Below, in pieces: positions 10,297 through 32,400 of a stretch of DNA of 64,000 bases; within the stretch, counting starts at the first letter, position 1, and every line of letters starts with the position of its first letter. This stretch comes from an uncultured Gammaproteobacteria bacterium (GTDB lineage: Bacteria; Patescibacteriota; Patescibacteriia; SG8-24). The notes under the pieces are model-generated. The model did no database searches. It saw only the letters and a program-made list of their open reading frames with translations, and was not told where the DNA came from. Location: the NCBI GenBank assembly GCA_964486995.1, contig CAZAOV010000007.1:699-64698 (forward strand), written 5' to 3'. The translations under genes and the position numbers were made by a program.

Positions 10297-11405
10297 AATG
10301 GGGACGTATGGAAACTCCCTTCAAGCCAAAGGCGCGTGAAGTCATAGATCGGCTGTTCGGAATCGCCGTTGATCAAGGCGCCTCTGACCTTCATCTGGTG
10401 GTTAACAGGCCGCCGATTTTGCGTATAGGTGGACAGCTCACGCCAGTTAATGGCGCAGCCGTATTGAATGCAGAGAACGTTAAGCAGTTATGTTTTTCAA
10501 TTTTGACGGATGTTGAGCGCGAACGTTTTATTACCGAAAAAGAATTAGATGTCGCGCATCAAATTCCGTCCGGCAAGCGCTTCCGAATTAATTTGCATTG
10601 GGAAAGGGAGCATGTTGCAATGGCGGCTCGAACTATTCCGTCAGACATTCCGTCCATGAAAGATTTGGATCTGCCGCCGGTGGCGCACCAAATGGTTAAT
10701 TATCCGCATGGCTTGGTGCTGGTAACCGGACCGACCGGCGCCGGTAAGTCCACGACATTGGCGTCCATGATCGACAGCATCATAGATACTAAACCGGTTA
10801 ATGTGATTACCCTAGAAGATCCGATAGAGTTTTTGTTCGAATCTAAGACCGCAGTGGTTCGTCAGCGTCAGTTTGGTCAGGATTTTATAAGTTTTGAGGA
10901 AGGCCTGAAGCATATTTTACGCCAGGATCCGGATGTGGTGATGGTTGGTGAAATGCGTGACATGTCAACGATTTCCACCACGCTTACTATTGCCGAAACC
11001 GGTCACCTGGTATTCGCCACGTTGCACACCTACAGTGCGGCACAGACTATCGATCGTATTATCGACGCCTTTCCGGCGCATCAGCAGAATCAGATCAGAA
11101 CCCAGTTAGCGTTAACATTACGGGCGATTATCTCACAGCAGATGTTGCCTCAGACGGGCGGTGGTCGCGTAGCCTCGCGCGAGATTCTGGTGAATAACTA
11201 TGCCATTGCAAATCTGATACGTGACGGTAAGGTACAGCAGATTAATAACGTACTGCAGACATCCGTCGCCGATGGCATGACCACTCTCAGGCAGGATCTG
11301 AAACGTTTGGTTGAAATGAATCTGATTTCCGAGAAGACTGCTAGTGAGCATATTATCGGTGAAGCGAAATTGAATGAGGATGAAGAAGACGGTAAGAAAA
11401 AGTAG
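10290..11405 (+). CDS. pilT: Type IV pilus retraction ATPase PilT
   Basis: N-terminal ASDLHL...PPILRIGGQL, Walker A GPTGAGKSTT, Asp/His boxes; ~370 aa is the typical PilT size. Confidence 0.9.
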   Translation: MVEWGRMETPFKPKAREVIDRLFGIAVDQGASDLHLVVNRPPILRIGGQLTPVNGAAVLNAENVKQLCFSILTDVERERFITEKELDVAHQIPSGKRFRINLHWEREHVAMAARTIPSDIPSMKDLDLPPVAHQMVNYPHGLVLVTGPTGAGKSTTLASMIDSIIDTKPVNVITLEDPIEFLFESKTAVVRQRQFGQDFISFEEGLKHILRQDPDVVMVGEMRDMSTISTTLTIAETGHLVFATLHTYSAAQTIDRIIDAFPAHQQNQIRTQLALTLRAIISQQMLPQTGGGRVASREILVNNYAIANLIRDGKVQQINNVLQTSVADGMTTLRQDLKRLVEMNLISEKTASEHIIGEAKLNEDEEDGKKK

Positions 11406-11836: not shown

Positions 11837-11911
11837 GCGGGCGTAGTTCAACGGATAGAACGGCGGTCTTCGGAACCGTTAATGGGGGTTCGATTCCCTC
11901 CGCCCGCACCA
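11837..11911 (+). tRNA. tRNA-Arg (anticodon TCG) with encoded CCA
   Basis: Manual cloverleaf: acceptor GCGGGCG/CGCCCGC, D-arm GTTC-AACGGATA-GAAC, anticodon stem GCGGT/ACCGT with loop CTTCGGA, T-arm GGGGG-TTCGATT-CCCTC, discriminator A, CCA; followed by terminator AAAAAACCAACCATTCGGTTGGTTTTTT. Confidence 0.85.
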
Positions 11912-12216: not shown

Positions 12217-12291
12217 GGGTCGGTAGCTCAACGGTAGAGCAAATGGCTCTTAACCATTAGGTTCAGGGTTCGAGTCCCTGTCGACCCACCA
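12217..12291 (+). tRNA. tRNA-Lys (anticodon CTT) with encoded CCA
   Basis: Acceptor GGGTCGG/TCGACCC, D-arm GCTC-AACGGTA-GAGC, anticodon stem AATGG/CCATT with loop CTCTTAA, T-arm CAGGG-TTCGAGT-CCCTG, CCA; followed by terminator GCCCCAGCCGAATAGGCTGGGGC-TTT. Confidence 0.85.
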
Positions 12292-16206: not shown

Positions 16207-17919
16207 ATGAATATCTCTGACGAACAACTAAAGAGTTTATTGCTAAGCTCGGGGGTCATCGAAGAGTCAGATTTTAAGGTTGCCGAAGAGGTGGTCAAGA
16301 AAACCGGTCTCCCGATTGAACAGGTGCTGATATCCAAGCGCCTGATTCCTGATGCGTATTTGGGTGAGTTGGTTGCCGAAAAGTTGGGGTTAAAATTTGT
16401 CGATTTGAAATCAATCGAAATACCGAACCACGTGTTACGCCTGATTCCTGAGCGAACCGCAAAAAGGAAGCGAGCCATTGCCTTCGGCGCCAGTCTTTCG
16501 AGTGGTTTGAAGTTGGCCATGGCTGATCCGAGCGATTTGGAATTCATTAGGAACATGGAGAAAAAAACCGGCTTGCGCGCTCAGGCTTATTTTGCTACTA
16601 AGGCCGGAATTAACCACGGGCTGGAGTCGTACACTAAGGATTTGGAAAGCGCGATTCGTAGCCTTGAGGAAAAATATGCCGCATTGACGACCGGTCGGCG
16701 GAAGGGCGGCGGCGCCGAAGAAGAAAGTAAGATTGTCAGCGTCGTTGATTTGATTATGGATTATGCGTATCAGAACGACGCCTCCGACGTTCACATCGAG
16801 CCACGCGAAGATTCAGTGATGGTTCGTTATCGTGTTGACGGCATTTTGCATGACGTAGCCATACTACCGCGGGAGTACCTGTCTGCCGTCGTCACTCGTA
16901 TCAAAATTCTGTCTCGGTTGCGTACGGACGAACACTTTGCCGCGCAGGACGGAAAATTTCAGGAGCGGGTAAACGGCAATCGTATCGATGTCCGTGTATC
17001 TATTATTCCAATTGTCGAGGGAGAAAAGGTGGTTATGCGCCTGCTGTCGGAAAGGGGAAAGACCTATGAGCTAGAAAGTCTGGGACTGACGGAGGGCGAG
17101 ATAAAGGTGATCCGCAAACACTCGCGTAAATCTTTCGGCATGATTTTGTCGACTGGTCCGACTGGCTCCGGTAAGACCACATCCCTGTACGCAATTTTAA
17201 ATGAGCTGAATACTCGTCACGTAAATATTGCCACCATCGAGGATCCAATTGAGTACGCCATGGAAGGAGCAAATCAAATCCAGGTCAATCCGAAGGCTGG
17301 TCTGACTTTCGCCTCCGGCCTGCGTTCTATCGTGCGTCAGGATCCGGATATCGTGATGGTAGGAGAGATTCGTGATCCAGAGACTGCAAGCATCGCGGTG
17401 AATGCCGCCATGACTGGGCACTTGGTGCTTTCAACTCTGCACACCAACGATGCGGCGACTGCCTTGCCGCGCTTTCGAGAAATGGAAATTGAACCGTTTT
17501 TGATCGCCTCAACGATTAACGTAATCGTTGCCCAGCGGTTGGTGCGACGTCTTTGTCCGAGATGCGTAATGAGCGAGGTGGTTCCAACGAGTGAATTGAG
17601 GAATCTTATTTCTGAAGACGTCATCAAGAAGTTTTTTGCGGGTAGCGACGGCAAGATTAGAAAAAGTGCCAACCTGTATCGCGGCAAAGGATGCGACAGC
17701 TGTAACCATTCCGGCTATAGCGGACGAATCGGCATATTTGAAATTCTGGAAATGTCCGAACCGATACGGCAACTGGTGATGGGGAACGCAAATTCGCAGA
17801 CCATACAGAATCAAGCGAAAGCCGATGGAATGGTTACCATGCTCGAGAACGGCATTCAAAAGGCGCTAGAAGGTGTGACCACTATCGACGAGGTGTTGCG
17901 TGTTACCGGCGAAACCTAA
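16207..17919 (+). CDS. pilB: Type IV pilus assembly ATPase PilB (GspE family) with an N-terminal GSPII domain
   Basis: Walker A STGPTGSGKTTSLY, Asp/His boxes, tetracysteine CPRC...CDSC zinc motif; 570 aa. Confidence 0.92.
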   Translation: MNISDEQLKSLLLSSGVIEESDFKVAEEVVKKTGLPIEQVLISKRLIPDAYLGELVAEKLGLKFVDLKSIEIPNHVLRLIPERTAKRKRAIAFGASLSSGLKLAMADPSDLEFIRNMEKKTGLRAQAYFATKAGINHGLESYTKDLESAIRSLEEKYAALTTGRRKGGGAEEESKIVSVVDLIMDYAYQNDASDVHIEPREDSVMVRYRVDGILHDVAILPREYLSAVVTRIKILSRLRTDEHFAAQDGKFQERVNGNRIDVRVSIIPIVEGEKVVMRLLSERGKTYELESLGLTEGEIKVIRKHSRKSFGMILSTGPTGSGKTTSLYAILNELNTRHVNIATIEDPIEYAMEGANQIQVNPKAGLTFASGLRSIVRQDPDIVMVGEIRDPETASIAVNAAMTGHLVLSTLHTNDAATALPRFREMEIEPFLIASTINVIVAQRLVRRLCPRCVMSEVVPTSELRNLISEDVIKKFFAGSDGKIRKSANLYRGKGCDSCNHSGYSGRIGIFEILEMSEPIRQLVMGNANSQTIQNQAKADGMVTMLENGIQKALEGVTTIDEVLRVTGET

Positions 17920-17945: not shown

Positions 17946-19169
17946 ATGTCATTTAAATACACTGCCGCAAACAGAGAGGGCGAGGTTCTTCATGGGGAAT
18001 CTGATTTAGGTTCGCGCGATGCGGTTTTGGGACAAATCGAATCTCAGGGTTTGATTGCTATTTCGGTCGATGAAATTGCTGACAGGAAAGAAAAGAAAAA
18101 ATTGAGTGAAATTGGTTTTGGTCGCATCAGAAACGTTGACATACTGCTGTTCACCAAGCATCTGTCGGTGATGCTCAAGGCGGGCTTAACGCTATCCGGT
18201 GCGCTAAGGGCTCTGGTCGATCAGACCAAATCACCGAAGTTCAAAAAAGTTTTGGATAACGTTCGAGCGAGGGTTGAACGGGGTGAAGGTTTTTCTAATG
18301 CGTTAGAGAAGCACCATAAAGTATTTTCCCCGTTCTATGTGCATGTGGTTCGAGCCGGTGAGATATCCGGAACCCTGGAGGAAAATTTAGAGCATCTGGC
18401 CGGTCAGTACGTCAAGGATTACAACCTGCGCAAGCGTGTCCAATCTGCCATGCTGTACCCGGGAATTGTTTTTGGGGCAGCACTACTGATCGGTTTTTTC
18501 TTCGCCTCGTATGTCTTGCCGCAGGTGAATAGCATTTTCTCCGGATTGGGTGATATCGATTTGCCGTGGGTGACCGAATTGCTAATGGCCGTCTCTAATT
18601 TCATGAGTGATAATACGTTGATTTCATTCTTAATAATGGTTGGCGCGGTCGCATTCTTCTGGTGGCTATTGCACCAGAAGTTTATCCGTCCGACTACGCA
18701 CTGGCTGACTCTGCACTTGCCGATTGTCGGCGGAATTGCGAAGGAAGTGAATTTGGCGCGGTTTTCGTTGATTTTAGGGACCTTGCTTAAAAGCGGCAAC
18801 GATATCGTTCGTGCCCTCGAGATTACACGAGAAGTATTGGACAACATGTACTACAAGCGAGTTATTGCCGAAGCGCATCTAGAAATGCAGCGCGGAATAA
18901 ATCTTCGTGAAAGCCTTAAAAAAAACGAGGATCTGTTCCCGTCGGTGGTGACGCATATGATTGACGTTGGTGAGCAGTCTGGGGAGCTGGAGGAGGTGCT
19001 GAAGTATCTCGCCGAATTCTACGAACTGGAAATCGAATCAACGATGAAAAATTTATCATCCGTTTTGGAGCCGGTACTATTGCTTTTTATTGGTTTAGTG
19101 GCCATGGGGCTAGCCTATGCGATTCTCATTCCGATTTATAACTACATTTCGGCGATTAGTAGTATCTAA
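17946..19169 (+). CDS. pilC: Type IV pilus inner-membrane platform protein PilC (GspF family)
   Basis: SD AGGAGG. Two GspF repeats and 3 TM segments; 407 aa. Confidence 0.9.
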   Translation: MSFKYTAANREGEVLHGESDLGSRDAVLGQIESQGLIAISVDEIADRKEKKKLSEIGFGRIRNVDILLFTKHLSVMLKAGLTLSGALRALVDQTKSPKFKKVLDNVRARVERGEGFSNALEKHHKVFSPFYVHVVRAGEISGTLEENLEHLAGQYVKDYNLRKRVQSAMLYPGIVFGAALLIGFFFASYVLPQVNSIFSGLGDIDLPWVTELLMAVSNFMSDNTLISFLIMVGAVAFFWWLLHQKFIRPTTHWLTLHLPIVGGIAKEVNLARFSLILGTLLKSGNDIVRALEITREVLDNMYYKRVIAEAHLEMQRGINLRESLKKNEDLFPSVVTHMIDVGEQSGELEEVLKYLAEFYELEIESTMKNLSSVLEPVLLLFIGLVAMGLAYAILIPIYNYISAISSI

Positions 19170-19253: not shown

Positions 19254-19769
19254 TTGGACGCTCATACGCTTCAACGCTCACATGTTTTTATGTTCAATCA
19301 GGTTTCAAAAAACGGCAAGCAATATTTTGGCTTCACGGTCATCGAGGTCATAATAGCTGTTGCTCTATTGTTGAGCGCAGCGGCTTTGTCGGTTCCGTTT
19401 ATGTCCAGCACCCTATCGAGGAATGAACTGGATGTGGCATTACAGCGGGCTGTTGACATGCTAAACGAGGCCCGTTCATCCGCCTTCAATGGACTCGGCG
19501 GCGGTGAATTTGGGGTGCGTTTTGAGTCTGGGGCAGTGGTCTTTTTTTCCGGCGACACTTATTCAGCGGTTGATCCAGATAACGTTGATTTTATCTTGCC
19601 TGGATTTGTGAGCATTACCGACATAAGCATCAGCGGCGGCGGATCCGAGATTGTTTTCGAGAGCGTTTCCGGCGCGCCGACACAAACCGGCTCCGTCGAA
19701 TTCACTGATTCTTCCGGCGAGACAAAAACCGTGTCGGTAAACACTCACGGCACGGTGAATTTGGAATAA
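19254..19769 (+). CDS. Prepilin-type (class III signal peptide) pseudopilin/minor pilin
   Basis: Leader ...KNGKQYFG followed by FTVIEVIIAVALLL (G-1, E+5, hydrophobic helix). The real start is probably the internal ATG (MFNQ..., ~19296). Confidence 0.7.
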   Translation: MDAHTLQRSHVFMFNQVSKNGKQYFGFTVIEVIIAVALLLSAAALSVPFMSSTLSRNELDVALQRAVDMLNEARSSAFNGLGGGEFGVRFESGAVVFFSGDTYSAVDPDNVDFILPGFVSITDISISGGGSEIVFESVSGAPTQTGSVEFTDSSGETKTVSVNTHGTVNLE

Positions 19770-19771
19770 CC

Positions 19772-22732
19772 ATGTTTGTTCACAGAAATAAAATTTCTGC
19801 ACGTTTCGCTCGTTCCGGCATTTCGGTAATCGAGGTGCTTTTGGCGATAGCGATTTTTGGGGTGTTGGCCGCAAGCCTGATGATTTTGGTATGGGAGCCT
19901 TTGGTGTCTTCGAGCAGTGCGGCTCAGCGCGTGCAGGCCGTATTGTTGGCCGAAGAGGGGTTAGACGCCGCACGCTCGATTCGTAATGCGGACTGGTTGG
20001 CGCTCATTGACGGCGATCACGGAATAGATATTACCGGTGGGACTTGGGTCTTTTCTGGTACCAGCGACACGGACGGAACTTACATTCGGGTGGTCACCGT
20101 TGAGCCGGTTAGCCGAGACGTCTCTGGAGACATAACCGACACGGGCGGCACGCTGGATGCGAGAACAAAAAAAGTGACTTCGACGGTCAGCTGGGATTCG
20201 CCGTTCGGTGGCGATAAGTCGTTGTCATTCTCTACTTTTTTCACTAACTGGAACGTCATTGATTGGACGCAGGAAACTGACACGGACTTTGCCGGCGGCA
20301 TCAATAACGGCACTATCGTTACCGGCTTCGGAGACGCTGCCTATATCGAACTAGGTGCCGGCGGAGGTTCTGGTACATGGGACGTTTGGACCAGCTCATC
20401 CGTCACCCACACCACAGATGGAGATTTTTCGGCCGGAACACCGACCGACGTTACCGTGACCGGTGACGGAATTGAATTGAGTTCCGGCGGAATCGGTTCA
20501 TGGTCGGATTACGGTCTCGGTCCGGTAAGCGGGTCGTTGTACGGCATCGACATGGTTAGTTCATCAGACGGTTGGGTGTGCGGAGCGGGAGGGGCAATGA
20601 TTTCTTGGGACGGCAGCAGTTGGTCTGGATCAGAAAGCGTGGCCGGAACTAACACATATGCCGTTGATATGGTGTCTTCGACCAATGGCCATGCCGCTGG
20701 CGAGTGGAGCCTGCTTTATTCTTACAACGGGTCTTCTTGGTCATACGAGGGTTTTGATGTCCTGCAGAATATTACGGCTATCGGCATGGTCGATGGCAGT
20801 GACGGCTGGGCGGGCAGCAGTGGCGGTCGCGTCTTGCGGTGGGACGGGGCAGATTGGAATTTCTTCACCGATATTGGCGCAGAAGAAGTCGGGGACATTT
20901 ATATGCTTAGCACCAGCGACGGTTGGTTGGTTGCGCAGAACGGGCGAATTGAACGGTGGGACGGCTCCTCTTGGTCCGCATTTACTTCACCTACCTCGTC
21001 CTATCTGCGGGCAATCGACATGATTGATGCCAATGACGGCTGGGTGGTGGGTGATTCAGGCACTATTATTCGTTGGAATGGTTCCAGCTGGTCATCAGTT
21101 TCGTCTCCGACTTCTGATGACCTTTATGGCATATCGGTCGTAGCGTCAGATGACGTGTGGGCAGTGGGCGAAAGCGGCCGCATAATCCACTGGGACGGCT
21201 CTAGTTGGTCGAGTGTTTCTTCACCGACCAGCGAAAATCTTTACGACATTGCCATGGTTTCAAATGCAGACGGCTGGGCCGTTGGAGCCAACGGGACCAT
21301 TTTACGATTCGAACTTTCGTACGCTTCACCGGGCATACTAGAATCATCCGTCATCAATAGCGGTAAAACCGGAACCAGCTGGAGCCAGGTTTCCTGGACC
21401 GAGTCTTTACCTGCCGGAACCGATGTTACGGTGGCGTTTCGTTCTGGTGATACGGCAACACCGGACGGTAGTTGGTCGTCTTGGGGTTCGGAGGTCACGA
21501 ATGAAACCGGCAGCGCCGTCACCTCGTCCAGCTCTCAATATCTGCAATACCGTGTCACCATGACCACCAGTTCAATCGACACTCCGCGACTGGAGGACAT
21601 TACGGTTACGTATGACGAAGTGACCAGTAGCGATTTGTACGGTGTTGGCGGCAGCGCGGTGGATGACGTGTGGACAGTGGGTGAGTCCGGAACCTTATTG
21701 AACTATGACGGTTCGTCCTGGTCCAGCTTCAGTTCGCCGACCGGAAACGACATAAATGCCGTGGACGTACTGGCGTTCAATGACGCTTGGGCGGCGGCGG
21801 ACAGTGAGCAGTTCTTGAATTGGGACGGTTCCGCCTGGACCATAGTCAGCGATATCGGCAGCGGAACACTGAACGATATTGACTTGATTACGTCTTCGTC
21901 CGGTTGGGCAGTCGGTTCGGGCGAGGAATTCTTTGAATATGATGGCTCGTCATGGTCCGAGCTGTTCGATTTGGGCGAAGATACGCCCCAAGCCGTGTTT
22001 ATGCTTTCCGCCGTCGAGGGCTGGGCAGCCGGATCAAGCGAAAAATTTTATCGGTATGATGGTTTGTCATGGGCCGATTTTTCTGATTTGGGCGGCGAAA
22101 CCATTTACGACATTTACATGATTAGTTCGTCCGAGGGCTGGGCAGTCGGTTCGGGCGGCAAGTTTTACCGCTGGAACGGAACCGCCTGGTTCGAGTATGT
22201 GGACGTCGGCGGGGCTACGCTATACGGAGTGATAATGATTTCTGCGGTCGAGGGCTGGGCAGTCGGTTCGGGCGGCGCCCTGTACGAATGGGACGGCAAC
22301 TCATGGTCGTCTGTCGTTTCCGGAGTGACTGAAGATCTATATGACGTGTCCATTGTTTCGACGTCGCCGACGATTGCCTGGGCGGTGGGTGCGAACGGAA
22401 CTCTATTGAGTTTAACTGCCGGAGGTTCAGGAACCAGCGGCACTTACGAATCCAGTATTCTGGATACGGACAGCACCGATTCAATTTGGGAAACCATGTA
22501 TTTCGATGTCGTGCTGCCCAACGATTCCACCGCTACTGTTGCCTTGCGTTCCGGCGATACGCCAACACCGGACGGTAGCTGGGCGTCATGGAGTTCAGAG
22601 ATTTCAGTCACCTCTGGCACAGCGGTTCCGGTTTCCGGCGCTCGGTACCTGCAGTACCGCGTTACTCTAGAGAAAAATACCAGCCCCGATTCCCCGGAAT
22701 TTCACGGCATCACCATTACCTATACGCAATGA
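19772..22732 (+). CDS. Giant pilin-like protein (986 aa): prepilin N-terminus, ~12 beta-propeller-like WDGSSW repeats, and a twice-repeated ~110 aa C-terminal module
   Basis: N-terminus RSG/ISVIEVLLAIAIFGVLAASLMIL. Repeated ...DGWAVG..G.I..WDGSSWS... units of ~50 aa. Duplicated module (L/F)RSGDT.TPDGSW.SW.....G......YLQYRV at aa ~520-640 and ~870-986. Overlaps the next gene (ATGA). Confidence 0.8.
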   Translation: MFVHRNKISARFARSGISVIEVLLAIAIFGVLAASLMILVWEPLVSSSSAAQRVQAVLLAEEGLDAARSIRNADWLALIDGDHGIDITGGTWVFSGTSDTDGTYIRVVTVEPVSRDVSGDITDTGGTLDARTKKVTSTVSWDSPFGGDKSLSFSTFFTNWNVIDWTQETDTDFAGGINNGTIVTGFGDAAYIELGAGGGSGTWDVWTSSSVTHTTDGDFSAGTPTDVTVTGDGIELSSGGIGSWSDYGLGPVSGSLYGIDMVSSSDGWVCGAGGAMISWDGSSWSGSESVAGTNTYAVDMVSSTNGHAAGEWSLLYSYNGSSWSYEGFDVLQNITAIGMVDGSDGWAGSSGGRVLRWDGADWNFFTDIGAEEVGDIYMLSTSDGWLVAQNGRIERWDGSSWSAFTSPTSSYLRAIDMIDANDGWVVGDSGTIIRWNGSSWSSVSSPTSDDLYGISVVASDDVWAVGESGRIIHWDGSSWSSVSSPTSENLYDIAMVSNADGWAVGANGTILRFELSYASPGILESSVINSGKTGTSWSQVSWTESLPAGTDVTVAFRSGDTATPDGSWSSWGSEVTNETGSAVTSSSSQYLQYRVTMTTSSIDTPRLEDITVTYDEVTSSDLYGVGGSAVDDVWTVGESGTLLNYDGSSWSSFSSPTGNDINAVDVLAFNDAWAAADSEQFLNWDGSAWTIVSDIGSGTLNDIDLITSSSGWAVGSGEEFFEYDGSSWSELFDLGEDTPQAVFMLSAVEGWAAGSSEKFYRYDGLSWADFSDLGGETIYDIYMISSSEGWAVGSGGKFYRWNGTAWFEYVDVGGATLYGVIMISAVEGWAVGSGGALYEWDGNSWSSVVSGVTEDLYDVSIVSTSPTIAWAVGANGTLLSLTAGGSGTSGTYESSILDTDSTDSIWETMYFDVVLPNDSTATVALRSGDTPTPDGSWASWSSEISVTSGTAVPVSGARYLQYRVTLEKNTSPDSPEFHGITITYTQ

Positions 22733-25700
22733 AGCGAGCCAAACAAAATAATAATCGCGGTATCGCCTTGCTGGAATTGATTATCTATCTGGGTCTGCTT
22801 GGCTTTGTACTTTCGGCAATGGTCATGTTTTCGGTCGAGTTTGCGGCCACCCACGCCAAGTCCGCGGCACTGGCCGAATCGGCGCGCAATACCAAGTTTG
22901 CAGTGACGAGAATCGCGTATGAGGTGCGTCGGGCCGAGTCCATCGACTACGACAACTCAACTCTCGATACCAGTCCGTCTGTCCTGACGCTTGAAACTTC
23001 CAATCCGTCCACCAATCCAACCGTTATTTCAGTGGTCGAAAATCAGCTGATGATGAGTCAGGGTGGGGGAGCGGATATTCCGCTCACGCCATCGCAAGTC
23101 GAGGTGGAGGATTTTACGATTATAAACGTGGCCGACACGACTCGCAGTCGGTCGATTCGGGTTGCGCTCACGTTGGGTATTGTCGAGTCGGGCAGCTTGG
23201 AAGAGTTTTCGGGAGTAACTTCCTACATGACTACGGTGCGGGTTTGGAAAGACGATGGCTATAACACCGAGGGCACACCACCGACTCCGACACCGACCTA
23301 TGGCCAGTCGGCATATCGCTTCTTTGCCAACGACGATTCCACTGATGTCGGCGCTCCGTTGGCGGCTCAAGATTCAGCCGCCGCACTTTCTTCCGATGGC
23401 AATCCGTTCCGTTTGCGTATGATGGTGGATGTTGATACCGCAACGGTGGCGACCAGCGCAGCCTCGTTCAAGCTGCAATTCGCGGAGAAGTCTGGCGCTT
23501 GCGATACCTATTTTGTTGGCGAGTCCTACGAAGACGTAACCGCGATTTCCGATATCGCCTATAACGACAACTCTCCCTCAGATGGCGTGGCGCTAAATGC
23601 CAACGCTAATGATCCGGTGCGAGCCGGCCGAACGTCCGTTGCGCAAACGTATGAGGAAGCCAATAATCTGACCAACTCGAATCAGATTTTGGCTGGTCAG
23701 ACCGGATTATGGGACTTTGCGCTAATTGACAACGACGGCACGGACGAAAAAGAATATTGTTTCCGTTTGGTGCACTCCAGCGATTCTCAGCTTAATGACT
23801 ATTCGGTCGTGCCGGAAATTTCCACGGCCGCTGGTTCCACCACCGATGTTTTCCGCGTCACCGAATATTACATTACCGCCGGAGAGTTTAGCGGGGACAC
23901 CTATGACCTTACGCTGGACCAGGCTTTGGCTTCCAACTATTTTACGATTATTCGCGGCAGCGACGGTAGCGGCACGGGCGGCGGCAATCGTGGCCCTGAT
24001 GAAAATTATGTTTCTTTGACCGCTGACCCGTTCGGAACGGGGGAACTGGTACCGTCTTCCGGTTCGGATGTACTGCAACTCACTCGCCATAATTCGGTTG
24101 ACGGTTGGCAGGGAGTGGTAACGGTAGCGGAGTGCCTAGGCAACTGTTCGACTTCCGGATTTGAATTACTGGACGTGCGTCGCGTGGTACATTCCGGCAC
24201 CTCTACCGGCGGCACAGAGACAGCAGGAGCCAGCTGGTCAGATATTGATCAAGTTATGCTGCTTGGCGGCTACAATGGCGCGGGCTGTGACAGTATCGAG
24301 ACCGATTCAGGCAGCCATCACAGCTGTCACGTTCGTCTTTGGCCGTCAGGCAGCAACCAAATATTTTGGACCAGAAATAGTTTGGGCGGTTTGATGACCG
24401 CAACTTCTACGGTACAGGTGCTGGAGTGGGGGAGCGACTGGACGGTGCAAAGACGCACGGTGACCGGAAGCTCCGGCGGCGACGGTGCCGATCAGTTGAC
24501 CGAGTATGATCGTACGGCCATCAGTTCGGTAAATCGTGACGCCACTTGGGTGTGGGGCACTGGGCATACGAGCGAAAGCGGAACTGGTGACAGCGCCGAA
24601 GCGTCGCTGATTACATTGGGTGACGGAGTTAACCTGAACTCGTCCGAATCTTGGGTGTCCGTCGGTCAAGAGGTCGATTGGGCAAACAAAGAATTCGAGG
24701 TGTATGCGCTGACTCATCCGAGCTTGATGGTTGATTACCGCTTCAAGCCGGACGGAAACGAGAGTGACCTGACCTATGATCAGGCGGTTAATTCGGCTAC
24801 GGCCGGCCTGCGGATGTCAGTGGCTTACAACGGGTCTGACGGTTCCGGCTCGCAGTACCCGCGGCCCATCTTCTCGACTCGGTATGCTTCCGATACATCT
24901 GTTCGTATGGAGCGCCGGCGTGTCGGCGCAGAATTCCCAGCTTGGATTCAGGGTATAGACTTTTCCAATATTATGGCTGGAGGTGGTCCGCCACCGAGTG
25001 CCACGTTGACTCAGTCGGCCTATCGTATATTCGATAACGACGATTCTACCGATGTGGGTGCACCCTTGGCAGCGCAAGATACAGCCGCCACCCTAACCGC
25101 AAATGAAAGTGAGTTTAGGCTTCGCTATTTGCTGGGTATCGACACGTTCGGGCTATCGATGTCAGGGGAGAGCCTTAAACTTCAGTACGCCACCAAGTCG
25201 GGTACGTGCGATACCGCATTTGCGGATGAAAGTTATGCTGACGTGACTGGCGCCACAGCCATTGCCTTCGCCGATAACTCGCCGTCCGATGGTGTCGCGC
25301 TGACCGAAAACGCGAACGACCCGGTGAGCGGTGGCCGAACAACGATCGCTCAAACATATGAAGAGAATAATAATCACACTAACACGACGGCTATCGCCAA
25401 CGGTGAGGCCGGGTTGTGGGATTTCGCCCTGGTTGACAACGACGGATTAAACGCCGCCGACTATTGTCTGCGTGTGGTGCGTTCTGACGGCAGTCTGCTC
25501 GACACCTATTCGGTTATCCCAGAAGTCTCAACGGTCTCCGGATGCGGAGTGATTTTTAGCGACGATTTCGAAGACGGCGATGCTTCTGACTGGGTACATA
25601 CTTGGGATAGCGGTGTCGATTGGAACGTGGTTGATGTCGGCGGAAACAATGTCTATGAAAACACCAGCTCAACCTACTCGCAGACCCAAGCCCCTTCATT

Positions 25701-28395
25701 TGGCGATGATGATTACGTTTATACGGGGCAGTTTACGATCAGCAATTATGGTATCCACGGATTTATTTTCCGTTATCAGGATGACAGTAATTTTTGGCGT
25801 CTAGTGTTTGAGTTTGGTCAGGTTCTGATTCGCGGTCAGGTGGGTGGGTCCTGGACAAATGCGGCCGGGCAGTCGGTAATCAATTGGTCTCCGACCGTCG
25901 GCACGACGTATAACATCAAGGTCAAAGCTGAAGGCAGTCAACTGGACGGAAAGTGGTGGGAAGACGGGACCGCCGAACCGGGTTCGTGGATGATTTCTGC
26001 CAATGACAGTCAGATATTGACTGGCTATGCGGGCGTGAGCAATCGTGACGGCACGCAGTTCGATAGTCTGTCCGTCACTACCTGCCTGACCGATCCGGTG
26101 ACTGGGTCGGTCACCGTAATTGACCCGAACGGCAATGATTCACTTATTGCTGGTTCGAACTATGAAATCCTGTGGAGCTCGTCGGACACTTCTGGCAATG
26201 TCGATATTGAATATTCGACCGACAATTTCGTTGCCGACATTAATTCGATTGCCAACAGCACGGCAGATGACGGAAGCTACTTTTGGACCGTTCCAAGCCT
26301 GGACAGTTCAACGGTGCGCGTGCGCATCAGCGACTCGGCCGATGCTGGCGTGACCGACACAAGCGACGCGGACTTCGAGATTTCCATGCCGCCGAGCGTC
26401 ACCGTAACCGACCCGAACGGCGGCGAGTCGCTCACTTCCGGTGACAGTTTTAATATCACCTGGATATCCATTAATTCCTCCGGATTCGTAGATATCGAGT
26501 ATTCAACCGACAATTTTGTTACCGATATAAATACGATAGTTGCCGGAACAGCCGATGACGGAATCCATGCCTGGAACGTGCCTGCTCTGGACAGTTCCAC
26601 CGTGCGCGTGCGCGTAACCGATGCGTTCTACGCCGGAATTGCAGATACGAGCGACGCGGACTTCAGCATCGCCACGCCGAGCACTGTCACGGTGACCGAC
26701 CCGAACGGCGGCGAGTCGCTCACTTCCGGTGACAGCTTTAATACCACCTGGACCTCCAACAACACCTCGGGCACGGTTGATATCGAATACTCCACCGACA
26801 ACTTTGTGTCCGATATCAATTCGATAGTTGTCGGAACCCTCGATGACGGTCTTTATGGCTGGACCGTTCCGAGTTTGGACAGCTCGACCGTACGCGTACG
26901 CGTTACCGACTCGGCCGATCCCGGCGTGACCGACACCAGCGACGCGGACTTCAGCATCGCCACGCCGAGCACTGTCACCGTGACCGACCCGAACGGCGGC
27001 GAGTCGTTAAACTCACAAGATTCATTCGACGTTACCTGGACCTCCAACAACACCTCGGGCACGGTTGATATCGAATACTCCACCGACAACTTTGTGTCCG
27101 ATATCAATTCGATAGTTGTCGGAACCCTCGATGACGGTCTTTATGGCTGGACCGTTCCGAGTTTGGACAGCTCGACCGTACGCGTACGCGTTACCGACTC
27201 GGCCGATCCCGGCGTGACCGACACCAGCGACGCGGACTTCAGCATCTCTACACAACCTACGTTCCGGGTAACCGAATACTACGTCACCAACAGTCAATTC
27301 AATCAGCAATCATACACCCTAACGCTCGACCAGGACTTAGAATCAAATTATTTTGTTATCGTCCGCGGCAGTGACGGTGACGGCAGCGGCAATGGCCATC
27401 GTGGTCCGGACGAGAACTACGCGGCATTGGCGGCTGACCCGTTTGGTACCGGTGATTTGAGCGATTCCGGTGCGTCAAACCAGATTGATCTTACCAGGCG
27501 GGGTGACACAGATGGCTGGCAGGGGGTAGTCACCGTAGTTGAATGCTTGGGCGACTGCGACTCGTCTGGCTTCGAACTGATTGGAGTCGAAGAGGTTACA
27601 CATTCTGGCAGTAGTACCGGCGGACAAGATACGTCCTCAGTTTCCTGGACCGACATCAATCAAATCATGCTGGTCGGCGGATTTTATGGCGCTGGCTGCA
27701 ACACCGATGAAAGCGACCATGTAGATCATGTCAGTTGCTTCGCCAAGATTTGGCCGGGCGGAACCAATGAAATTAATTGGTCCAGAGATGTCGGCGGCAA
27801 TAGTTCCCTGAGCACGGCCACCAGCACGGTCATGGTCATGGAGTGGGGGAGCGAATGGAACGTCCAGCGAGTTGATGTTGTCGGCAATAACGGCGGCAAC
27901 GGCGCGGACAGCACCGGCGAATACGACACGGCCAGCATCTCACCGGTGGCTCGGGTCAACACCTGGGTTTGGGGAACCGGTCACGTGGACGATGACGGTA
28001 TCGGCGATTCGGCCGAGGGGTCATTGGTTACGCTGGGCAACGGCGTGAACCAAAACGCCACCGAGTCGCAAGTAGCCGTAGGCAGTGAATACGGTGACGA
28101 CAAGGACTATGTGGTATATGCGCTAACGCACCCAGGCCTAGCGGTAGATTATTTCTTCAAGACCGACGGTCAAAGAGGCGATTTAACCAATGACGCGTCG
28201 GTTGATTCGGCGCCGGCCGGCAGTCGTATGGCGTTGGCCTATAACGGCTGTAACGGCACGGGACATGCTTATCCGAGGCCGATATTCTCGGCGCGATATT
28301 TATCGGACACGTTTATCCGCATGGAGCGGCTTCGGTCCGGTCAGGCATTTCCAGCTTGGATTCAGGGCATCGACTTTAGCGAGATAAAACATTAG
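22729..28395 (+). CDS. Giant pilin-like protein (~1888 aa): prepilin N-terminus; domains A-B, then A', a LamG/ConA-like domain, 4 tandem ~96 aa Ig-like repeats, and B'
   Basis: Start MKRAKQNNNRG/IALLELIIYLGLLGFV (class III signal). ORF track begins further upstream at 22588 inside the previous gene. Internal duplication of a ~190 aa domain (YRFFANDDSTDVGAPLAAQD... x2) and a ~370 aa domain (FRVTEYY...AWIQGIDFS x2). WRLVFEFGQVLIRG region consistent with a LamG-like fold. Confidence 0.8.
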   Translation: MKRAKQNNNRGIALLELIIYLGLLGFVLSAMVMFSVEFAATHAKSAALAESARNTKFAVTRIAYEVRRAESIDYDNSTLDTSPSVLTLETSNPSTNPTVISVVENQLMMSQGGGADIPLTPSQVEVEDFTIINVADTTRSRSIRVALTLGIVESGSLEEFSGVTSYMTTVRVWKDDGYNTEGTPPTPTPTYGQSAYRFFANDDSTDVGAPLAAQDSAAALSSDGNPFRLRMMVDVDTATVATSAASFKLQFAEKSGACDTYFVGESYEDVTAISDIAYNDNSPSDGVALNANANDPVRAGRTSVAQTYEEANNLTNSNQILAGQTGLWDFALIDNDGTDEKEYCFRLVHSSDSQLNDYSVVPEISTAAGSTTDVFRVTEYYITAGEFSGDTYDLTLDQALASNYFTIIRGSDGSGTGGGNRGPDENYVSLTADPFGTGELVPSSGSDVLQLTRHNSVDGWQGVVTVAECLGNCSTSGFELLDVRRVVHSGTSTGGTETAGASWSDIDQVMLLGGYNGAGCDSIETDSGSHHSCHVRLWPSGSNQIFWTRNSLGGLMTATSTVQVLEWGSDWTVQRRTVTGSSGGDGADQLTEYDRTAISSVNRDATWVWGTGHTSESGTGDSAEASLITLGDGVNLNSSESWVSVGQEVDWANKEFEVYALTHPSLMVDYRFKPDGNESDLTYDQAVNSATAGLRMSVAYNGSDGSGSQYPRPIFSTRYASDTSVRMERRRVGAEFPAWIQGIDFSNIMAGGGPPPSATLTQSAYRIFDNDDSTDVGAPLAAQDTAATLTANESEFRLRYLLGIDTFGLSMSGESLKLQYATKSGTCDTAFADESYADVTGATAIAFADNSPSDGVALTENANDPVSGGRTTIAQTYEENNNHTNTTAIANGEAGLWDFALVDNDGLNAADYCLRVVRSDGSLLDTYSVIPEVSTVSGCGVIFSDDFEDGDASDWVHTWDSGVDWNVVDVGGNNVYENTSSTYSQTQAPSFGDDDYVYTGQFTISNYGIHGFIFRYQDDSNFWRLVFEFGQVLIRGQVGGSWTNAAGQSVINWSPTVGTTYNIKVKAEGSQLDGKWWEDGTAEPGSWMISANDSQILTGYAGVSNRDGTQFDSLSVTTCLTDPVTGSVTVIDPNGNDSLIAGSNYEILWSSSDTSGNVDIEYSTDNFVADINSIANSTADDGSYFWTVPSLDSSTVRVRISDSADAGVTDTSDADFEISMPPSVTVTDPNGGESLTSGDSFNITWISINSSGFVDIEYSTDNFVTDINTIVAGTADDGIHAWNVPALDSSTVRVRVTDAFYAGIADTSDADFSIATPSTVTVTDPNGGESLTSGDSFNTTWTSNNTSGTVDIEYSTDNFVSDINSIVVGTLDDGLYGWTVPSLDSSTVRVRVTDSADPGVTDTSDADFSIATPSTVTVTDPNGGESLNSQDSFDVTWTSNNTSGTVDIEYSTDNFVSDINSIVVGTLDDGLYGWTVPSLDSSTVRVRVTDSADPGVTDTSDADFSISTQPTFRVTEYYVTNSQFNQQSYTLTLDQDLESNYFVIVRGSDGDGSGNGHRGPDENYAALAADPFGTGDLSDSGASNQIDLTRRGDTDGWQGVVTVVECLGDCDSSGFELIGVEEVTHSGSSTGGQDTSSVSWTDINQIMLVGGFYGAGCNTDESDHVDHVSCFAKIWPGGTNEINWSRDVGGNSSLSTATSTVMVMEWGSEWNVQRVDVVGNNGGNGADSTGEYDTASISPVARVNTWVWGTGHVDDDGIGDSAEGSLVTLGNGVNQNATESQVAVGSEYGDDKDYVVYALTHPGLAVDYFFKTDGQRGDLTNDASVDSAPAGSRMALAYNGCNGTGHAYPRPIFSARYLSDTFIRMERLRSGQAFPAWIQGIDFSEIKH
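26746..27240 (+). repeat. Near-identical ~288 bp tandem repeat inside the giant pilin (Ig-like repeats 3 and 4), ~210 bp of perfect nucleotide identity
   Basis: acctggacctccaacaacacctcgggcacggttgatatcgaatactccaccgac...gacttcagcatc occurs twice, 288 bp apart. Repeats 1-2 (26390..26690) are more diverged. Confidence 0.8.
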
Positions 28396-28397
28396 AT

Positions 28398-28820
28398 ATG
28401 ATAATTATCAAACCAGCGCAAAATACTGATAGGGGAGCCGTCGCTTTGATTACGGTAATTGTTTTAGGCTCGTTACTGCTTATACTCGGTCTGTCCGCTT
28501 CTTACGTTGGGCAGACAGAAATAATTATCGCCGGCCAGATGGACCGGGGTCAGCATGCTCGCACTCTAGCCGCTACATGTATTGAGGAAGCGCTGCATCG
28601 TCTCAAACTAGATGATGCATATGCAGGAGGAACGATTGATATTGATTCCGATTCTTGCGCAGTTACGATTATCGGCGCCGGTTCATCACGTACTATCACC
28701 AGCACGGCCATCTCGGGGGATTTTACCAAGAACATCGAAGTCATCGCTTCCCTAAGGCAAAATGCCGATACCGATGCCTCGGCATGGAACATAGATTCGT
28801 GGACTGAGTTAGACCCGTAA
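28398..28820 (+). CDS. PilX-N-like minor pilin
   Basis: N-terminus ...TDRGAVALITVIVLGSLLLILGLSASY resembles the PilX_N family (RGxALxxxLLLLxxLxxLG); 140 aa. Confidence 0.55.
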   Translation: MIIIKPAQNTDRGAVALITVIVLGSLLLILGLSASYVGQTEIIIAGQMDRGQHARTLAATCIEEALHRLKLDDAYAGGTIDIDSDSCAVTIIGAGSSRTITSTAISGDFTKNIEVIASLRQNADTDASAWNIDSWTELDP

Positions 28821-29086: not shown

Positions 29087-31732
29087 ATGTCCGGCAAGGC
29101 AGTTGGAATTGATATATCAGATCGCTCAATTGAGATGGTTTCCATGCGGGAAAAAAGCGCTGGAACCATTGATGGTGTGACACGAGCCGAACTACCTGCG
29201 GGGATAATTTCGCGAGGTAAGATTGAGGATTACGATGAGCTGTTGAAGCGAGTCAAGAGTCTTCTAGATGATTTATTTGGTGCTCGTCGTGGCAAGATTG
29301 ATGTGGGCATGGCCATGACAGAAACGATGGTCTATTCCAAAATATTCAGAATGCCGCAGGGGTTGGGCTACGATCATTATGCGAAAGCGCTGGAAATAGA
29401 GGCAATAGAGGAATTTCCGTATGACTTAACTTCGCAAGTGATTTCGAATTTTGTGCTGGTTCGGTCTGGAGAGAAAGAACGGGAATTTTTGTATGCCACC
29501 GTGGATGCGGATAAGGCTAAAGAATACGAACGCCTGCTGAACGAAGCTGGAGCTAACCCCGTTTTCTTTGAGCCTGAATCATCGGCTCTAGCCAGAGCGG
29601 CGGTGTCGCCAGAGCTATCATCGGACGCGCTTTTAGCTGATATCGGAGCGCGCACCACGATGCTGGTTGCCCTAGGAGTTAAAGGCGAGCCGGTGCTGAG
29701 TTCAGCAGTTCCTGTAGGTGGTGACATTTTGACTACAGAGATTGAGAAAAGACTCAACGTTACACTCGCGGAAGCGGAGGCAGTAAAGAGACGCAGTGGA
29801 TTTGACGCCAGCGTGGATGATGGGCGCGTCATGTTGATTCTGCAGAACCCGTTCGATGAAATAGCTAAAGAGATTAAGATAACCATCAATTATTATCACG
29901 AAAAGACTGGACGCGACATTAATAAGATAGTCTTGGCTGGCGGCACGTCGCTACTGCCCAAGGTTATGGATTACATGTCATCGCGCTTTGCGGACGTAGA
30001 AGTTTCTCGAGCCGATCCGCTAAAGAGGTTTGCGGTTAAACCGAACATAAAGCTACCACCAAAATTCAAACAAGAGGCCGTCTTATATTCGACGGCAGTC
30101 GGACTGGCAGTTCGTGCGGCGGGCTCGCGCGACCGTCCCGGTCCTAACTTACTACCGTCCGCTCGCGGCCACGGTCGCAAAAGCGGAGGGTTCATAAATT
30201 TCATTCGTTCTCTATTTAAAAAGCCCCTTCGTCCTATGTCACCAACCAAAAAGTCACCAAGAAAAAAAGCTTCACCCAAGAAGTCAATTAAGAAAAAGAC
30301 AGCTACCAAGAAGAAATCTTCTAAGCCCTCCTCGTCCAAGAAGGCTGCTATCGATTTTGATGCCAAAAAGGAGGAAATAAAAGAAGAGGAGGAGGTGGTT
30401 GAGACCACGGCCACGCAAGAGCCTGAAGAGGCGAAGGGCGATGCCGCGTCTGGTTTGAATGCAATCGTTGAGGCTGAAGATTCGGTCGATGCCGATGAGG
30501 GTATCGTTCCAGAACGAGATTTTGGTATGGGAGTTGGTGATATTTTGTCCGGTTCGTCAGAGAAAAAGGATGCCGACGAACAACTCGAGAGTGACGAGGC
30601 AGTAGATAAGGTTTCGATAGAATCGATTCTGCAGGGTCGGTCTAGTGGGGGAGCTGATGGCGTCTATGAGGACGATGAATATGGAACCGTTGAAGAGGAT
30701 CCACACCCGAAAAAGAGAAAGATTCGCTGGAGCGTAGCGATTCCGTTGGTGGTGTTCGTACTGGCCATCTTACTGGTCGCGGAAGGGGCTGGTTTGTTCG
30801 GTCGGGGCGGTTCGTCAAAGCTGTTCTCTGCAATTACGCCTTTCTTCGGAGGAGATGGAGGAAAGGAGCAAACGACTGAACCGGCTGAAACCGGACCGGT
30901 CGTTCCTTCGTTAATTTCCATGAACGTATTAATTTCCTCGGTCGAGGATGAGGAAGAAGTAGCAGTTTCGGTCGTTCCTTCGCGTATCATCGAAACTGAT
31001 GTGACCGCAACTGATTCTTTCCAGGCTACCGGCGAGGCTCCGGCTGAAGAGGCGCGTGCTGTGGGCACGATAACTGTGGTCAACGAAACATCGAACGACT
31101 ATCGCTTCGTCGCGACCACGCGCTTTTTGTCCACGGACGGCATATTGTTCCGCCTCAAGGAAGAGTCAGATATTCCGGCCAACAGCACGGCCGATGTTGA
31201 GGTGTATGCGGATGAAGTTGGTGCTTCCGGTGACATTGGTCCGTCCAGGTTCACTATTCCAGGTTTGGGCGGAGATTTGGAGCAGTACGTCTATGGACGA
31301 AGTCGAACCGCCATGACCGGTGGTAGCGGCACCGTGGCTGCAGTTAAGGAAGACGATATTGAAACCGCCCGCGCTACGCTGTTAGACCGTTTGTTTGATG
31401 AAGCGCGCGAAAATTTTAGGTCCATGATTTCGGCTGGGGAAATAGTACTTGATGATCTGATTACCTCTAATGAGTTGGACTCCACCCTGCCGGATATCGG
31501 GCAGGAAGGTACTGCGTTCGACGTGGCGCTCACAGTTCAGTTCAGCACCCTAGTGGTGCCAGAAGCGGATTTGCTGGCAAAACTAGGCGAGAAGCTTCTC
31601 GAAGAATTGCCAGAAAATGTAGTGCCGACCGACTATGAGCTGGGTGCGATGCTGTACACCGTCGAGGCATTCGACACTACCAGCGGTCGAGCAGAAATTC
31701 GCGCAGAAGCACCGGTCCAACGCATTCAATAA
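29087..31732 (+). CDS. pilM: PilM-PilN(-PilO-like) fusion: N-terminal actin-like PilM, K-rich linker, TM anchor, large extracytoplasmic C-terminal domain
   Basis: AVGIDISDRSIEMVS (PilM N-terminus), K-rich segment PTKKSPRKKASPKKSIKKK..., TM RWSVAIPLVVFVLAILLVAEGAGLFG, then a ~330 aa periplasmic-type domain. Confidence 0.8.
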   Translation: MSGKAVGIDISDRSIEMVSMREKSAGTIDGVTRAELPAGIISRGKIEDYDELLKRVKSLLDDLFGARRGKIDVGMAMTETMVYSKIFRMPQGLGYDHYAKALEIEAIEEFPYDLTSQVISNFVLVRSGEKEREFLYATVDADKAKEYERLLNEAGANPVFFEPESSALARAAVSPELSSDALLADIGARTTMLVALGVKGEPVLSSAVPVGGDILTTEIEKRLNVTLAEAEAVKRRSGFDASVDDGRVMLILQNPFDEIAKEIKITINYYHEKTGRDINKIVLAGGTSLLPKVMDYMSSRFADVEVSRADPLKRFAVKPNIKLPPKFKQEAVLYSTAVGLAVRAAGSRDRPGPNLLPSARGHGRKSGGFINFIRSLFKKPLRPMSPTKKSPRKKASPKKSIKKKTATKKKSSKPSSSKKAAIDFDAKKEEIKEEEEVVETTATQEPEEAKGDAASGLNAIVEAEDSVDADEGIVPERDFGMGVGDILSGSSEKKDADEQLESDEAVDKVSIESILQGRSSGGADGVYEDDEYGTVEEDPHPKKRKIRWSVAIPLVVFVLAILLVAEGAGLFGRGGSSKLFSAITPFFGGDGGKEQTTEPAETGPVVPSLISMNVLISSVEDEEEVAVSVVPSRIIETDVTATDSFQATGEAPAEEARAVGTITVVNETSNDYRFVATTRFLSTDGILFRLKEESDIPANSTADVEVYADEVGASGDIGPSRFTIPGLGGDLEQYVYGRSRTAMTGGSGTVAAVKEDDIETARATLLDRLFDEARENFRSMISAGEIVLDDLITSNELDSTLPDIGQEGTAFDVALTVQFSTLVVPEADLLAKLGEKLLEELPENVVPTDYELGAMLYTVEAFDTTSGRAEIRAEAPVQRIQ

Positions 31733-31809: not shown

Positions 31810-32400
31810 ATGAAGCGCAATAACAAAGGTTTTACCCTAGTCGAGCTCCTAATCGTCATCGGCATCATCGGTTTTCTGGCCGCAGCCATCTTGGTGGCGG
31901 TCGACCCGGTCAAGCGTATCCAGGACTCACGCAACTCCCAGCGCTGGTCAGAGGTCAACTCAATCCTGAACGCGGTGCTGAAGAAGCAGGTTGATGATCG
32001 GGCTCTGTATAACGGCGACTCAGCGGCACCCATCATCACCAGTGCCGACTATGCTCAGGTCATTGTCGAGGATGCAACCGATATAGTTTGTAATGTCGAG
32101 AGTACTCGACCCGGTTGCGATACAGCTTTGGATGTAAGCGCGGCGGACGCCGACTGCGTGGCGCAGCTTTTCGAAAATACTTCTCCGGGCACAGAACATC
32201 TTAATCCGACCTACTTGGCTGAAATGCCAACCGATCCCGGTGATGCCACCTGTCTGGATAGCGGAGACTGCACAGCGTTTGGTGACATTGTCATTGGTGA
32301 TTCGAATAGCGGTTATTATATCAAGCGAAGCACCGGCAACCGAATCGAGATTGGCGCATGTCAGCCGGAGCAGGGCGCTACCATCAGCGTCAAGCGATAG
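31810..32400 (+). CDS. pilA: Type IV major pilin (PilA-like), copy 1
   Basis: MKRNNKG/FTLVELLIVIGIIGFLAAAILVAV class III signal; 196 aa with 4 Cys in the C-terminal D-region; followed by terminator ATCCCGCTCCGTCTGAGCGGGAT-T5. Confidence 0.85.
   Translation: MKRNNKGFTLVELLIVIGIIGFLAAAILVAVDPVKRIQDSRNSQRWSEVNSILNAVLKKQVDDRALYNGDSAAPIITSADYAQVIVEDATDIVCNVESTRPGCDTALDVSAADADCVAQLFENTSPGTEHLNPTYLAEMPTDPGDATCLDSGDCTAFGDIVIGDSNSGYYIKRSTGNRIEIGACQPEQGATISVKR

Follow-up and report, generated by a model that had tools for sequence, protein, structure and literature searches.

Does the very large pilin-like protein encoded in a type IV pilus operon of an uncultivated bacterium belong to the pilus, and, if it does, what is its long C-terminal part for? 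We examined this question in a stretch of 64,000 nucleotides (hereafter, the window; positions 699 to 64,698 of contig CAZAOV010000007.1, GenBank assembly GCA_964486995.1), which is deposited under the name of an uncultured Gammaproteobacteria bacterium and is placed by GTDB in the Patescibacteriota (lineage SG8-24). The gene in question, here called giant pilin 1, is one uninterrupted open reading frame (ORF) of 986 amino acid residues at positions 19772-22732 of the forward strand. Before any database search, a reading of the letters and the translated ORFs (the sequence-only reading) had described its product as a prepilin carrying a propeller-like repeat array and a duplicated C-terminal module.

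Patescibacteria (the candidate phyla radiation, CPR) are ultrasmall bacteria; those in cultivation are obligate epibionts, and their recognition of the host is poorly understood. To our knowledge, the only functional data on this recognition concern a propeller-bearing minor pilin from one Saccharibacterium. In the present study, we examined the N-terminus, the repeats, the predicted structure, the homologues and the gene neighbourhood of giant pilin 1. We found a conserved prepilin motif followed by two predicted seven-bladed propellers, each capped by a jelly-roll module, and we consider it probable (a probability of about 0.62) that giant pilin 1 is a modular minor type IV pilin of Patescibacteria that displays a ligand-binding head at the pilus tip.

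Results and discussion

The prepilin N-terminus and the pilin module

Giant pilin 1 begins with MFVHRNKISARFARSG/ISVIEVLLAIAIFGVLAASL (the slash marks the predicted cleavage site), that is, a basic leader of 16 residues with Gly at position -1 and Glu at position +5. A hydrophobic stretch of about 21 residues follows Gly16, and the motif around the site is RSG/ISVIE. The prepilin peptidase PilD is predicted to cleave between G16 and I17. In an alignment of the N-terminal domains of 19 homologues, the conservation of both Gly-1 and Glu+5 reached 90% or more, and the gene is part of a type IV pilus operon. At the sequence level, the prepilin N-terminus proposed by the sequence-only reading was thus supported, and giant pilin 1 carries the motif of a class III signal peptide.

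In the AlphaFold2 model, which was built with a profile from 29 full-length homologues, the part that follows the leader has a 55-residue N-terminal helix and a beta-sheet (a 'lollipop' fold), with a predicted local distance difference test score (pLDDT) of 80-90. A search of the Protein Data Bank (PDB) with an N-terminal profile gave weak matches to pilin helices (geopilin, E = 0.003; PilA, E = 0.03). The linker, or stalk, between this pilin module and the head differs among relatives: in most homologues, the motif Q-T-D-W-S-G-G-x-G-Q replaces the two TDxDFxxGT units of giant pilin 1. Many giant proteins that are not pilins but bear the jelly-roll module described below have the same motif close to the N-terminus.

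Two tandem propellers of the Ycf48 family

A regular-expression scan for [WY][DN]G..W gave 12 matches, which are preceded by GWAVG-like strands. The first set has signatures at residues 279, 318, 357, 396, 435 and 474, and the second at residues 645, 684, 723, 762, 801 and 840; in both, the period is exactly 39 residues. The seventh blade of each set is in register and keeps the GWAVG strand but has lost the signature, so that the 39-residue layout comprises 14 blades. The earlier count of about 12 repeats stands as a count of signatures, and the spacing of about 50 residues given with it has to be corrected to 39.

The AlphaFold2 model (mean pLDDT 86.1; predicted template modelling score, pTM, 0.48) agrees with this layout. 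The helix (residues 19-73) is followed by the beta-sheet to about residue 160, by two short beta units to about residue 246, and then by the propellers. Residues 256-517 form 28 strands, that is, seven four-stranded blades, and a small sandwich extends from there to residue 615; residues 622-883 form a second set of seven blades, after which a second sandwich follows. When the model was compared with the PDB by Foldseek, tandem seven-bladed propellers were at the top with E values of about 1e-18 (the BT4663 sensor domain, PorZ, Aip1 and Utp21). The 29-homologue profile, searched against PDB sequences, matched Ycf48 crystal structures at residues 249-521 (E = 1e-15). These results agree with the propeller fold that the sequence-only reading had proposed. 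The fold and signal-peptide predictions had been named beforehand as the points on which that reading could fail, and neither went against it, the signal peptide having been judged at the sequence level.

Among the families suggested earlier for the repeats, Pfam PSII_BNR (PF14870) was found above its gathering score (36.2 bits against 27), whereas neither BNR nor Sortilin-Vps10 matched giant pilin 1 at E <= 0.01. Read from the sequence, the blade signature D-G-x-x-W lacks one residue relative to the Asp-box D-x-G-x-T-W. The above-threshold score, the match to Ycf48 structures and the seven plus seven blades of the model place the propellers in the PF14870 family. An orthologue of Ycf48 itself, the photosystem II assembly factor, was considered and rejected: the NCBIfam equivalog model NF010237 gave 37 bits against a cut-off of 326.

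A duplicated propeller and jelly-roll unit

The motif RSGDT occurs at residues 557 and 926, and YLQYRV at residues 590 and 959; in either case, the two copies lie 369 residues apart. Residues 241-616 and 610-986 align over their full length with 36% identity (E = 7e-70), which is far beyond chance. This was seen by aligning the two halves, whole-protein self-BLAST having returned only the identity match. Judged from the common offset and the half-to-half alignment, the duplicated element is a unit of about 370 residues that consists of a propeller and its module, and not the module by itself. The earlier observation that the module occurs twice was correct as to the two sites; what had been missed is that the entire unit is duplicated.

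An AlphaFold2 model of the jelly-roll module alone had a pLDDT of 92.9, and its fold resembles, weakly (E >= 0.17), PirA, Asp1-3, the C-terminal domain of PNGase, CBM35 and CBM6. Pfam gave nothing significant for the module even at E <= 10 (the best was CBM27, E = 0.047), and the module profile had no matches among PDB sequences. Based on the model, the module can be called only a jelly-roll, a sandwich like those of carbohydrate-binding modules (CBMs). At E <= 1e-3 the module profile found 11,599 representative proteins, of which 4,472 remained at E <= 1e-10. Many of these proteins have several copies and are 2000-6500 residues long, and among the best 130 the majority have no N-terminus of pilin type. 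No Pfam model covered the jelly-roll, even in proteins built from three or four copies of it; a very common extracellular domain of about 100 residues thus stands exposed as one for which Pfam has no model.

The sequence-only reading had also placed similar modules in the next gene, giant pilin 2. This did not hold: a module profile of 28 sequences gave an hhalign probability of 0.4% and no hmmsearch match at E <= 0.01. Weak BLASTP matches between segments of the two giant pilins (best E = 4e-8, in an N-terminal/linker segment), obtained without composition correction, were rejected because both proteins are rich in S, T, G and D. Giant pilin 2 had no Pfam or NCBIfam match. It has internal duplications of its own with about 60% identity (residues 182-369 with 751-938, and 370-748 with 1507-1886), as well as four tandem repeats of 96 residues at 1127-1516.

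A conserved carrier pilin with exchangeable heads

A protein search with giant pilin 1 gave 912 matches, with a best identity of 42%. The named top matches are from Patescibacteria (Uhrbacteria, Buchananbacteria and 'Patescibacteria group'), and nearly all of the top 60 or so start with G-x-S-[LIV]-[LIV]-E. Among the top homologues, proteins of about 590 residues have about 6 blade signatures and one module, those of about 1000 residues about 11-12 signatures and two modules, and those of about 1400 residues about 18 signatures and three modules; the number of propeller units thus varies from one to three between relatives. Distant matches have about 12 blade signatures and a Sec-type N-terminus, without the prepilin motif or the module; those that are named come from Chloroflexia, Anaerolineae and Actinobacteria. 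Since the propeller occurs in such proteins, it is an extracellular domain of general use, and here it was grafted onto a pilin.

At two homologous loci (L001 and L002), the order of the operon and the position of the giant pilin 1 homologue are the same as in the window, and at L002 the flanking housekeeping genes are also syntenic. The propeller pilin of L002 has three units (1405 residues). The L002 orthologues of the fourth pilin-like protein, in the same position, and of the PilM fusion have 149 and 938 residues, respectively. Because the L002 orthologue of giant pilin 2 has only 186 residues, the third minor pilin, too, has gained about 1650 residues of extra domains in the lineage of the window.

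We then considered the pilin part as a carrier of different heads. A scan of species-representative genomes with a 5-sequence alignment found 124 relatives, and 80 loci were kept. About 14 of the 80 match along the propellers, and the remainder match only about residues 14-160. The taxa with such carrier pilins include Saccharibacteria, Paceibacterota, and Uhr-, Magasanik-, Falkow-, Peri-, Dojka-, Wolfe- and Doudnabacteria, and the ORFs with a carrier match range from 131 to about 2000 residues. Sampled carriers bear LVIVD propellers, LamG plus CBM4_9 lectin-type domains, or InlB B-repeats; elsewhere, the carrier can be bare, with no graft. Several carrier orthologues without Ycf48-like propellers share the jelly-roll of about 100 residues as their C-terminal end. 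In these sequences, the carrier pilin is the conserved part and the grafted head is exchangeable among orthologues, and because of this contrast we suggest that the head determines the binding specificity.

The pilus operon

The operon comprises, in order, genes for a histidine kinase, two response regulators, PilB, PilC, four minor pilins, a PilM fusion and two major pilins (Table 1). Giant pilin 1 is the second of the four minor-pilin genes, and its ATG follows the stop codon of the first, GspH-like gene after a gap of 2 nucleotides; it is thus encoded alongside the type IV pilus assembly genes. The order of the four-gene block resembles GspH-I-J-K or FimU-PilV-PilW-PilX. Canonical minor-pilin sets prime the assembly of type IV filaments and end at the filament tip, and by analogy we infer the same behaviour for this block.

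Table 1. Features of giant pilin 1 and of its surroundings in the window
Feature	Position	Strand	Remarks
PilT-type retraction ATPase	10290-11405	+	
tRNA-Arg(tcg)	11837-11911	+	in a gap of 1.4 kb, free of ORFs, that separates pilT from the histidine kinase gene
tRNA-Lys(ctt)	12217-12291	+	in the same 1.4-kb ORF-free gap
PilB extension ATPase	16207-17919	+	
PilC platform protein	17946-19169	+	
First minor pilin, GspH-like	19254-19769	+	G/FTVIE; probable start ATG 19290
Modular minor type IV pilin (giant pilin 1; probable), whole gene	19772-22732	+	986 residues plus stop
Class III (prepilin) leader	19772-19819	+	residues 1-16; basic, Gly16 last
Pilin module	19820-20266	+	residues 17-165; AlphaFold2: helix 19-73 packed on an antiparallel beta-sheet, strands 81-158
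Linker/stalk	20267-20512	+	residues 166-247; two short beta units, each with a TDxDFxxGT motif
Propeller 1	20513-21331	+	residues 248-520; seven 39-residue blades, six with the W-D/N-G-x-x-W signature, the seventh degenerate
Jelly-roll module 1 (RSGDT...YLQYRV)	21332-21610	+	residues 521-613; module hidden Markov model (HMM) 126 bits, residues 517-615
Propeller 2	21611-22429	+	residues 614-886; seven 39-residue blades, six with the signature, one degenerate
Jelly-roll module 2, C-terminus	22430-22729	+	residues 887-986; module HMM 109.6 bits, residues 888-985
Third minor pilin (giant pilin 2)	22729-28395	+	1888 residues; G/IALLE; ATG overlaps the giant pilin 1 stop
Fourth pilin-like protein	28398-28820	+	140 residues; RG/AVALITVIVLG, without Glu+5 (like GspK/PilX)
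PilM-fusion protein	29087-31732	+	881 residues
Two major-pilin paralogues (presumed)	31810-32400, 32532-33137	+	about 200 residues each; strong N_methyl matches
ComEC in two overlapping ORFs	53537-55087, 55071-56006	+	one ORF with the Competence domain, one with the metallo-beta-lactamase domain; looks split

Comparison with known systems

In Streptococcus sanguinis, the modular pilins PilB, with a vWA module, and PilC, with a lectin module, function as adhesins (Raynaud et al. 2021, PMC8179133). Like giant pilin 1, they combine a class III pilin module, a linker and bulky domains that are not of pilus type, and they are minor pilins with an expected role in ligand binding. The head of giant pilin 1 differs in consisting of two tandem Ycf48-like propellers, each capped by a jelly-roll; its homologues, known from sequence, vary from one to three such units.

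The nearest example with functional data is PilX2 of Nanosynbacter lyticus TM7x, a minor pilin of Saccharibacteria with a C-terminal seven-bladed propeller, which is genetically required for efficient host binding and not for filament extrusion (PMC11623550). Both proteins are minor pilins of Patescibacteria that bear a seven-bladed propeller, and the behaviour of PilX2 is the one we propose for giant pilin 1. However, PilX2 has a single propeller with RCC1 repeats, similar to PLL lectins, and no signal peptide for PilD is predicted in it, whereas in giant pilin 1 the G/E+5 motif is clear and the head has two Ycf48-like propellers as well as jelly-rolls.

Three other systems share parts of this architecture. 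PilY1/PilC of Pseudomonas and Neisseria is a functional analogue, a propeller adhesin held at the tip through the minor-pilin complex. PilY1, however, is not a pilin and uses its own propeller to attach to the minor pilins, whereas the propellers of giant pilin 1 are fused to the pilin; no Pfam match to the PilY1/PilC tip-adhesin family was found on giant pilin 1. Ycf48/HCF136 (PF14870; PDB 5ojp and 2xbg) belongs by sequence to the same family of seven-bladed propellers, but in giant pilin 1 the propellers are in tandem and fused to a pilin, and the organism is non-photosynthetic. The best whole-model fold matches, the sensor domain of the BT4663 hybrid two-component system (4a2l) and PorZ (5m11), likewise contain a pair of seven-bladed propellers with a small beta-sandwich after them; the likeness is one of fold only, with 10-12% identity, and the N-terminal anchors and cellular contexts differ. 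BT4663 binds glycans.

The accession IPR028203 is, we presume, that of the Ycf48-like domain. Dataset S1 of the modular-pilin survey contains one protein with the architecture IPR012902-IPR028203. In all, the survey lists more than 1,200 modular pilins, distributed over 264 architectures, and many are from CPR (PMC8179133). Calling an adhesin-like architecture unusual for a pilin, as the sequence-only reading did, was therefore an overstatement, since modular pilins are widespread (PMC8179133) and a minor pilin with a propeller is known from Saccharibacteria (PMC11623550). A literature search on Ycf48 together with pilins found no description of pilins with Ycf48-like propellers; several of the homologues are already annotated as 'prepilin-type N-terminal cleavage/methylation domain-containing protein'. 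The modular-pilin principle and a propeller-bearing minor pilin of CPR are already published, and the advance is incremental, not conceptual. What is added is the great variety of heads on one conserved carrier pilin within the radiation, in this case a tandem Ycf48-like array with a variable number of units; these heads are concrete, sequence-defined candidates for determinants of host specificity in uncultivated lineages.

Proposed function and alternative explanations

Giant pilin 1 combines a pilin module with PSII_BNR propellers and jelly-rolls, domains that are not specific to pili; both the propeller and the jelly-roll are also found in proteins without a pilin N-terminus. This is the composition of a modular pilin. 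On the precedents of S. sanguinis PilB/PilC and TM7x PilX2, we propose the following course. A prepilin peptidase encoded elsewhere in the genome would cut after Gly16, and the hydrophobic helix would dock with the other three minor pilins into a priming complex that comes to lie at the pilus tip. The head of about 85 kDa, formed by the C-terminal 820 or so residues with their propellers and jelly-rolls, would then be shown distally as a ligand-binding adhesin. Its ligand would most likely be a glycan or protein on the surface of a host bacterium or substrate, and retraction driven by PilT would draw the cell toward the bound target.

Several results weigh against this proposal. The Pfam N_methyl model scored below its threshold on giant pilin 1 (16.3 against 21.2 bits), NCBIfam TIGR02532 did not match it, and the GspI/PilV equivalogs TIGR01707 and TIGR02523 reached 18.7 bits where 44 and 52 are required, their matches being confined to the N-terminal helix. 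The pilin-domain fold is a predicted one, read from the AlphaFold2 model alone, and at a pTM of 0.48 the model does not predict how the domains are placed relative to one another. In the case of the jelly-roll, Foldseek found no significant neighbour of the module model (best E = 0.17, TM 0.5-0.6). No prepilin peptidase gene was found in the window by Pfam, over all ORFs of at least 150 residues, or by a scan for GxGD[VF]K, the single match of which is antisense to giant pilin 2. We know of no established adhesin activity of Ycf48-like propellers. Finally, ComEC is encoded in the window, and the pilus could serve DNA uptake instead.

We weighed three other explanations, each of which is less well supported than a modular pilin. 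Archaeal sugar-binding proteins with class III signal peptides are a parallel for a membrane-anchored surface receptor or binding protein, in which the signal peptide and helix would serve only as a tether or would form a short pseudopilus-like stub. A head of about 820 residues is very large to pass with a thin filament, the next gene product is larger still, and the N-methyl score below threshold fits a mere anchor. We nevertheless regard such an anchor as improbable: even in distant relatives, the gene stays at the same place among the minor-pilin genes of a complete pilus operon, and Glu+5, which matters for the packing of pilin against pilin, is conserved. Moreover, characterised modular pilins with bulky heads do enter pili (PMC8179133), and TM7x PilX2 acts as a pilus-associated adhesin (PMC11623550). 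The TM7x work bears also on a competence pilus, the head of which would bind extracellular DNA or another nutrient polymer and not a host cell, since in TM7x neither the propeller pilin nor the pilus affected competence (PMC11623550). Giant pilin 1 has an acidic composition with few Lys and Arg residues (K 0.8%, R 2.5%, D 8.5%, E 4.4%), ill suited to binding DNA, no DNA-binding domain or family match was found, and orthologous carriers bear LamG and CBM4_9 lectin-type modules, which point to glycans. We therefore think a competence pilus unlikely, even though ComEC and PilT are both present and some minor pilins have weak ComGE-like matches at the N-terminus. CPR bacteria, which lack nucleotide synthesis, presumably scavenge DNA, and this also speaks for uptake.

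The remaining explanation is that the propellers are catalytic, a BNR/sialidase-like or GH74-like glycosidase borne on a pilin and degrading surface polymers of the host. Propeller glycosidases exist, and WDGSSW resembles an Asp-box short of one residue. Modular pilins with enzymatic modules have also been catalogued (PMC8179133). However, no BNR, sialidase, GH74 or other glycoside hydrolase family was found in Pfam at E <= 0.01, the nearest sequence relatives of solved structure are the non-enzymatic Ycf48 scaffold proteins, and the invariant residues are the structural Trp and Gly of the blades. We consider catalysis very unlikely.

Taking giant pilin 1 as a modular minor pilin, we offer a further idea only tentatively, namely that the second minor-pilin slot of Patescibacteria operons is a cassette-like specificity locus, with exchangeable heads that set which host cell is bound. 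The diversity of carrier pilins in length and modules is compatible with it. If it is true, the heads would set the attachment range of an epibiont as receptor-binding proteins set the host range of a phage, and the adjacent minor pilins of 986 and 1888 residues would here together form a complex of over 300 kDa at the tip.

Other observations in the window and at related loci

In the PilM fusion, only residues 7-344 match PilM; the other 540 or so residues are without a family match and may be fused PilN/PilO-like parts. The two pilins of about 200 residues with N_methyl matches are presumably the major subunits. Their first 70 residues are identical and their C-termini nearly so, and their central regions are divergent, which might point to antigenic variation, functional variation or a heteropolymeric pilus. 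The split-looking ComEC, together with PilT, suggests that the organism can take up DNA.

Several contigs with a Patescibacteria-type pilin operon (L007, L008, L011-L013, L015, L028 and others) are labelled 'uncultured Gammaproteobacteria bacterium', and one more (L006) is labelled Vicinamibacterales. These are probably mislabelled or mis-binned contigs of metagenome-assembled genomes.

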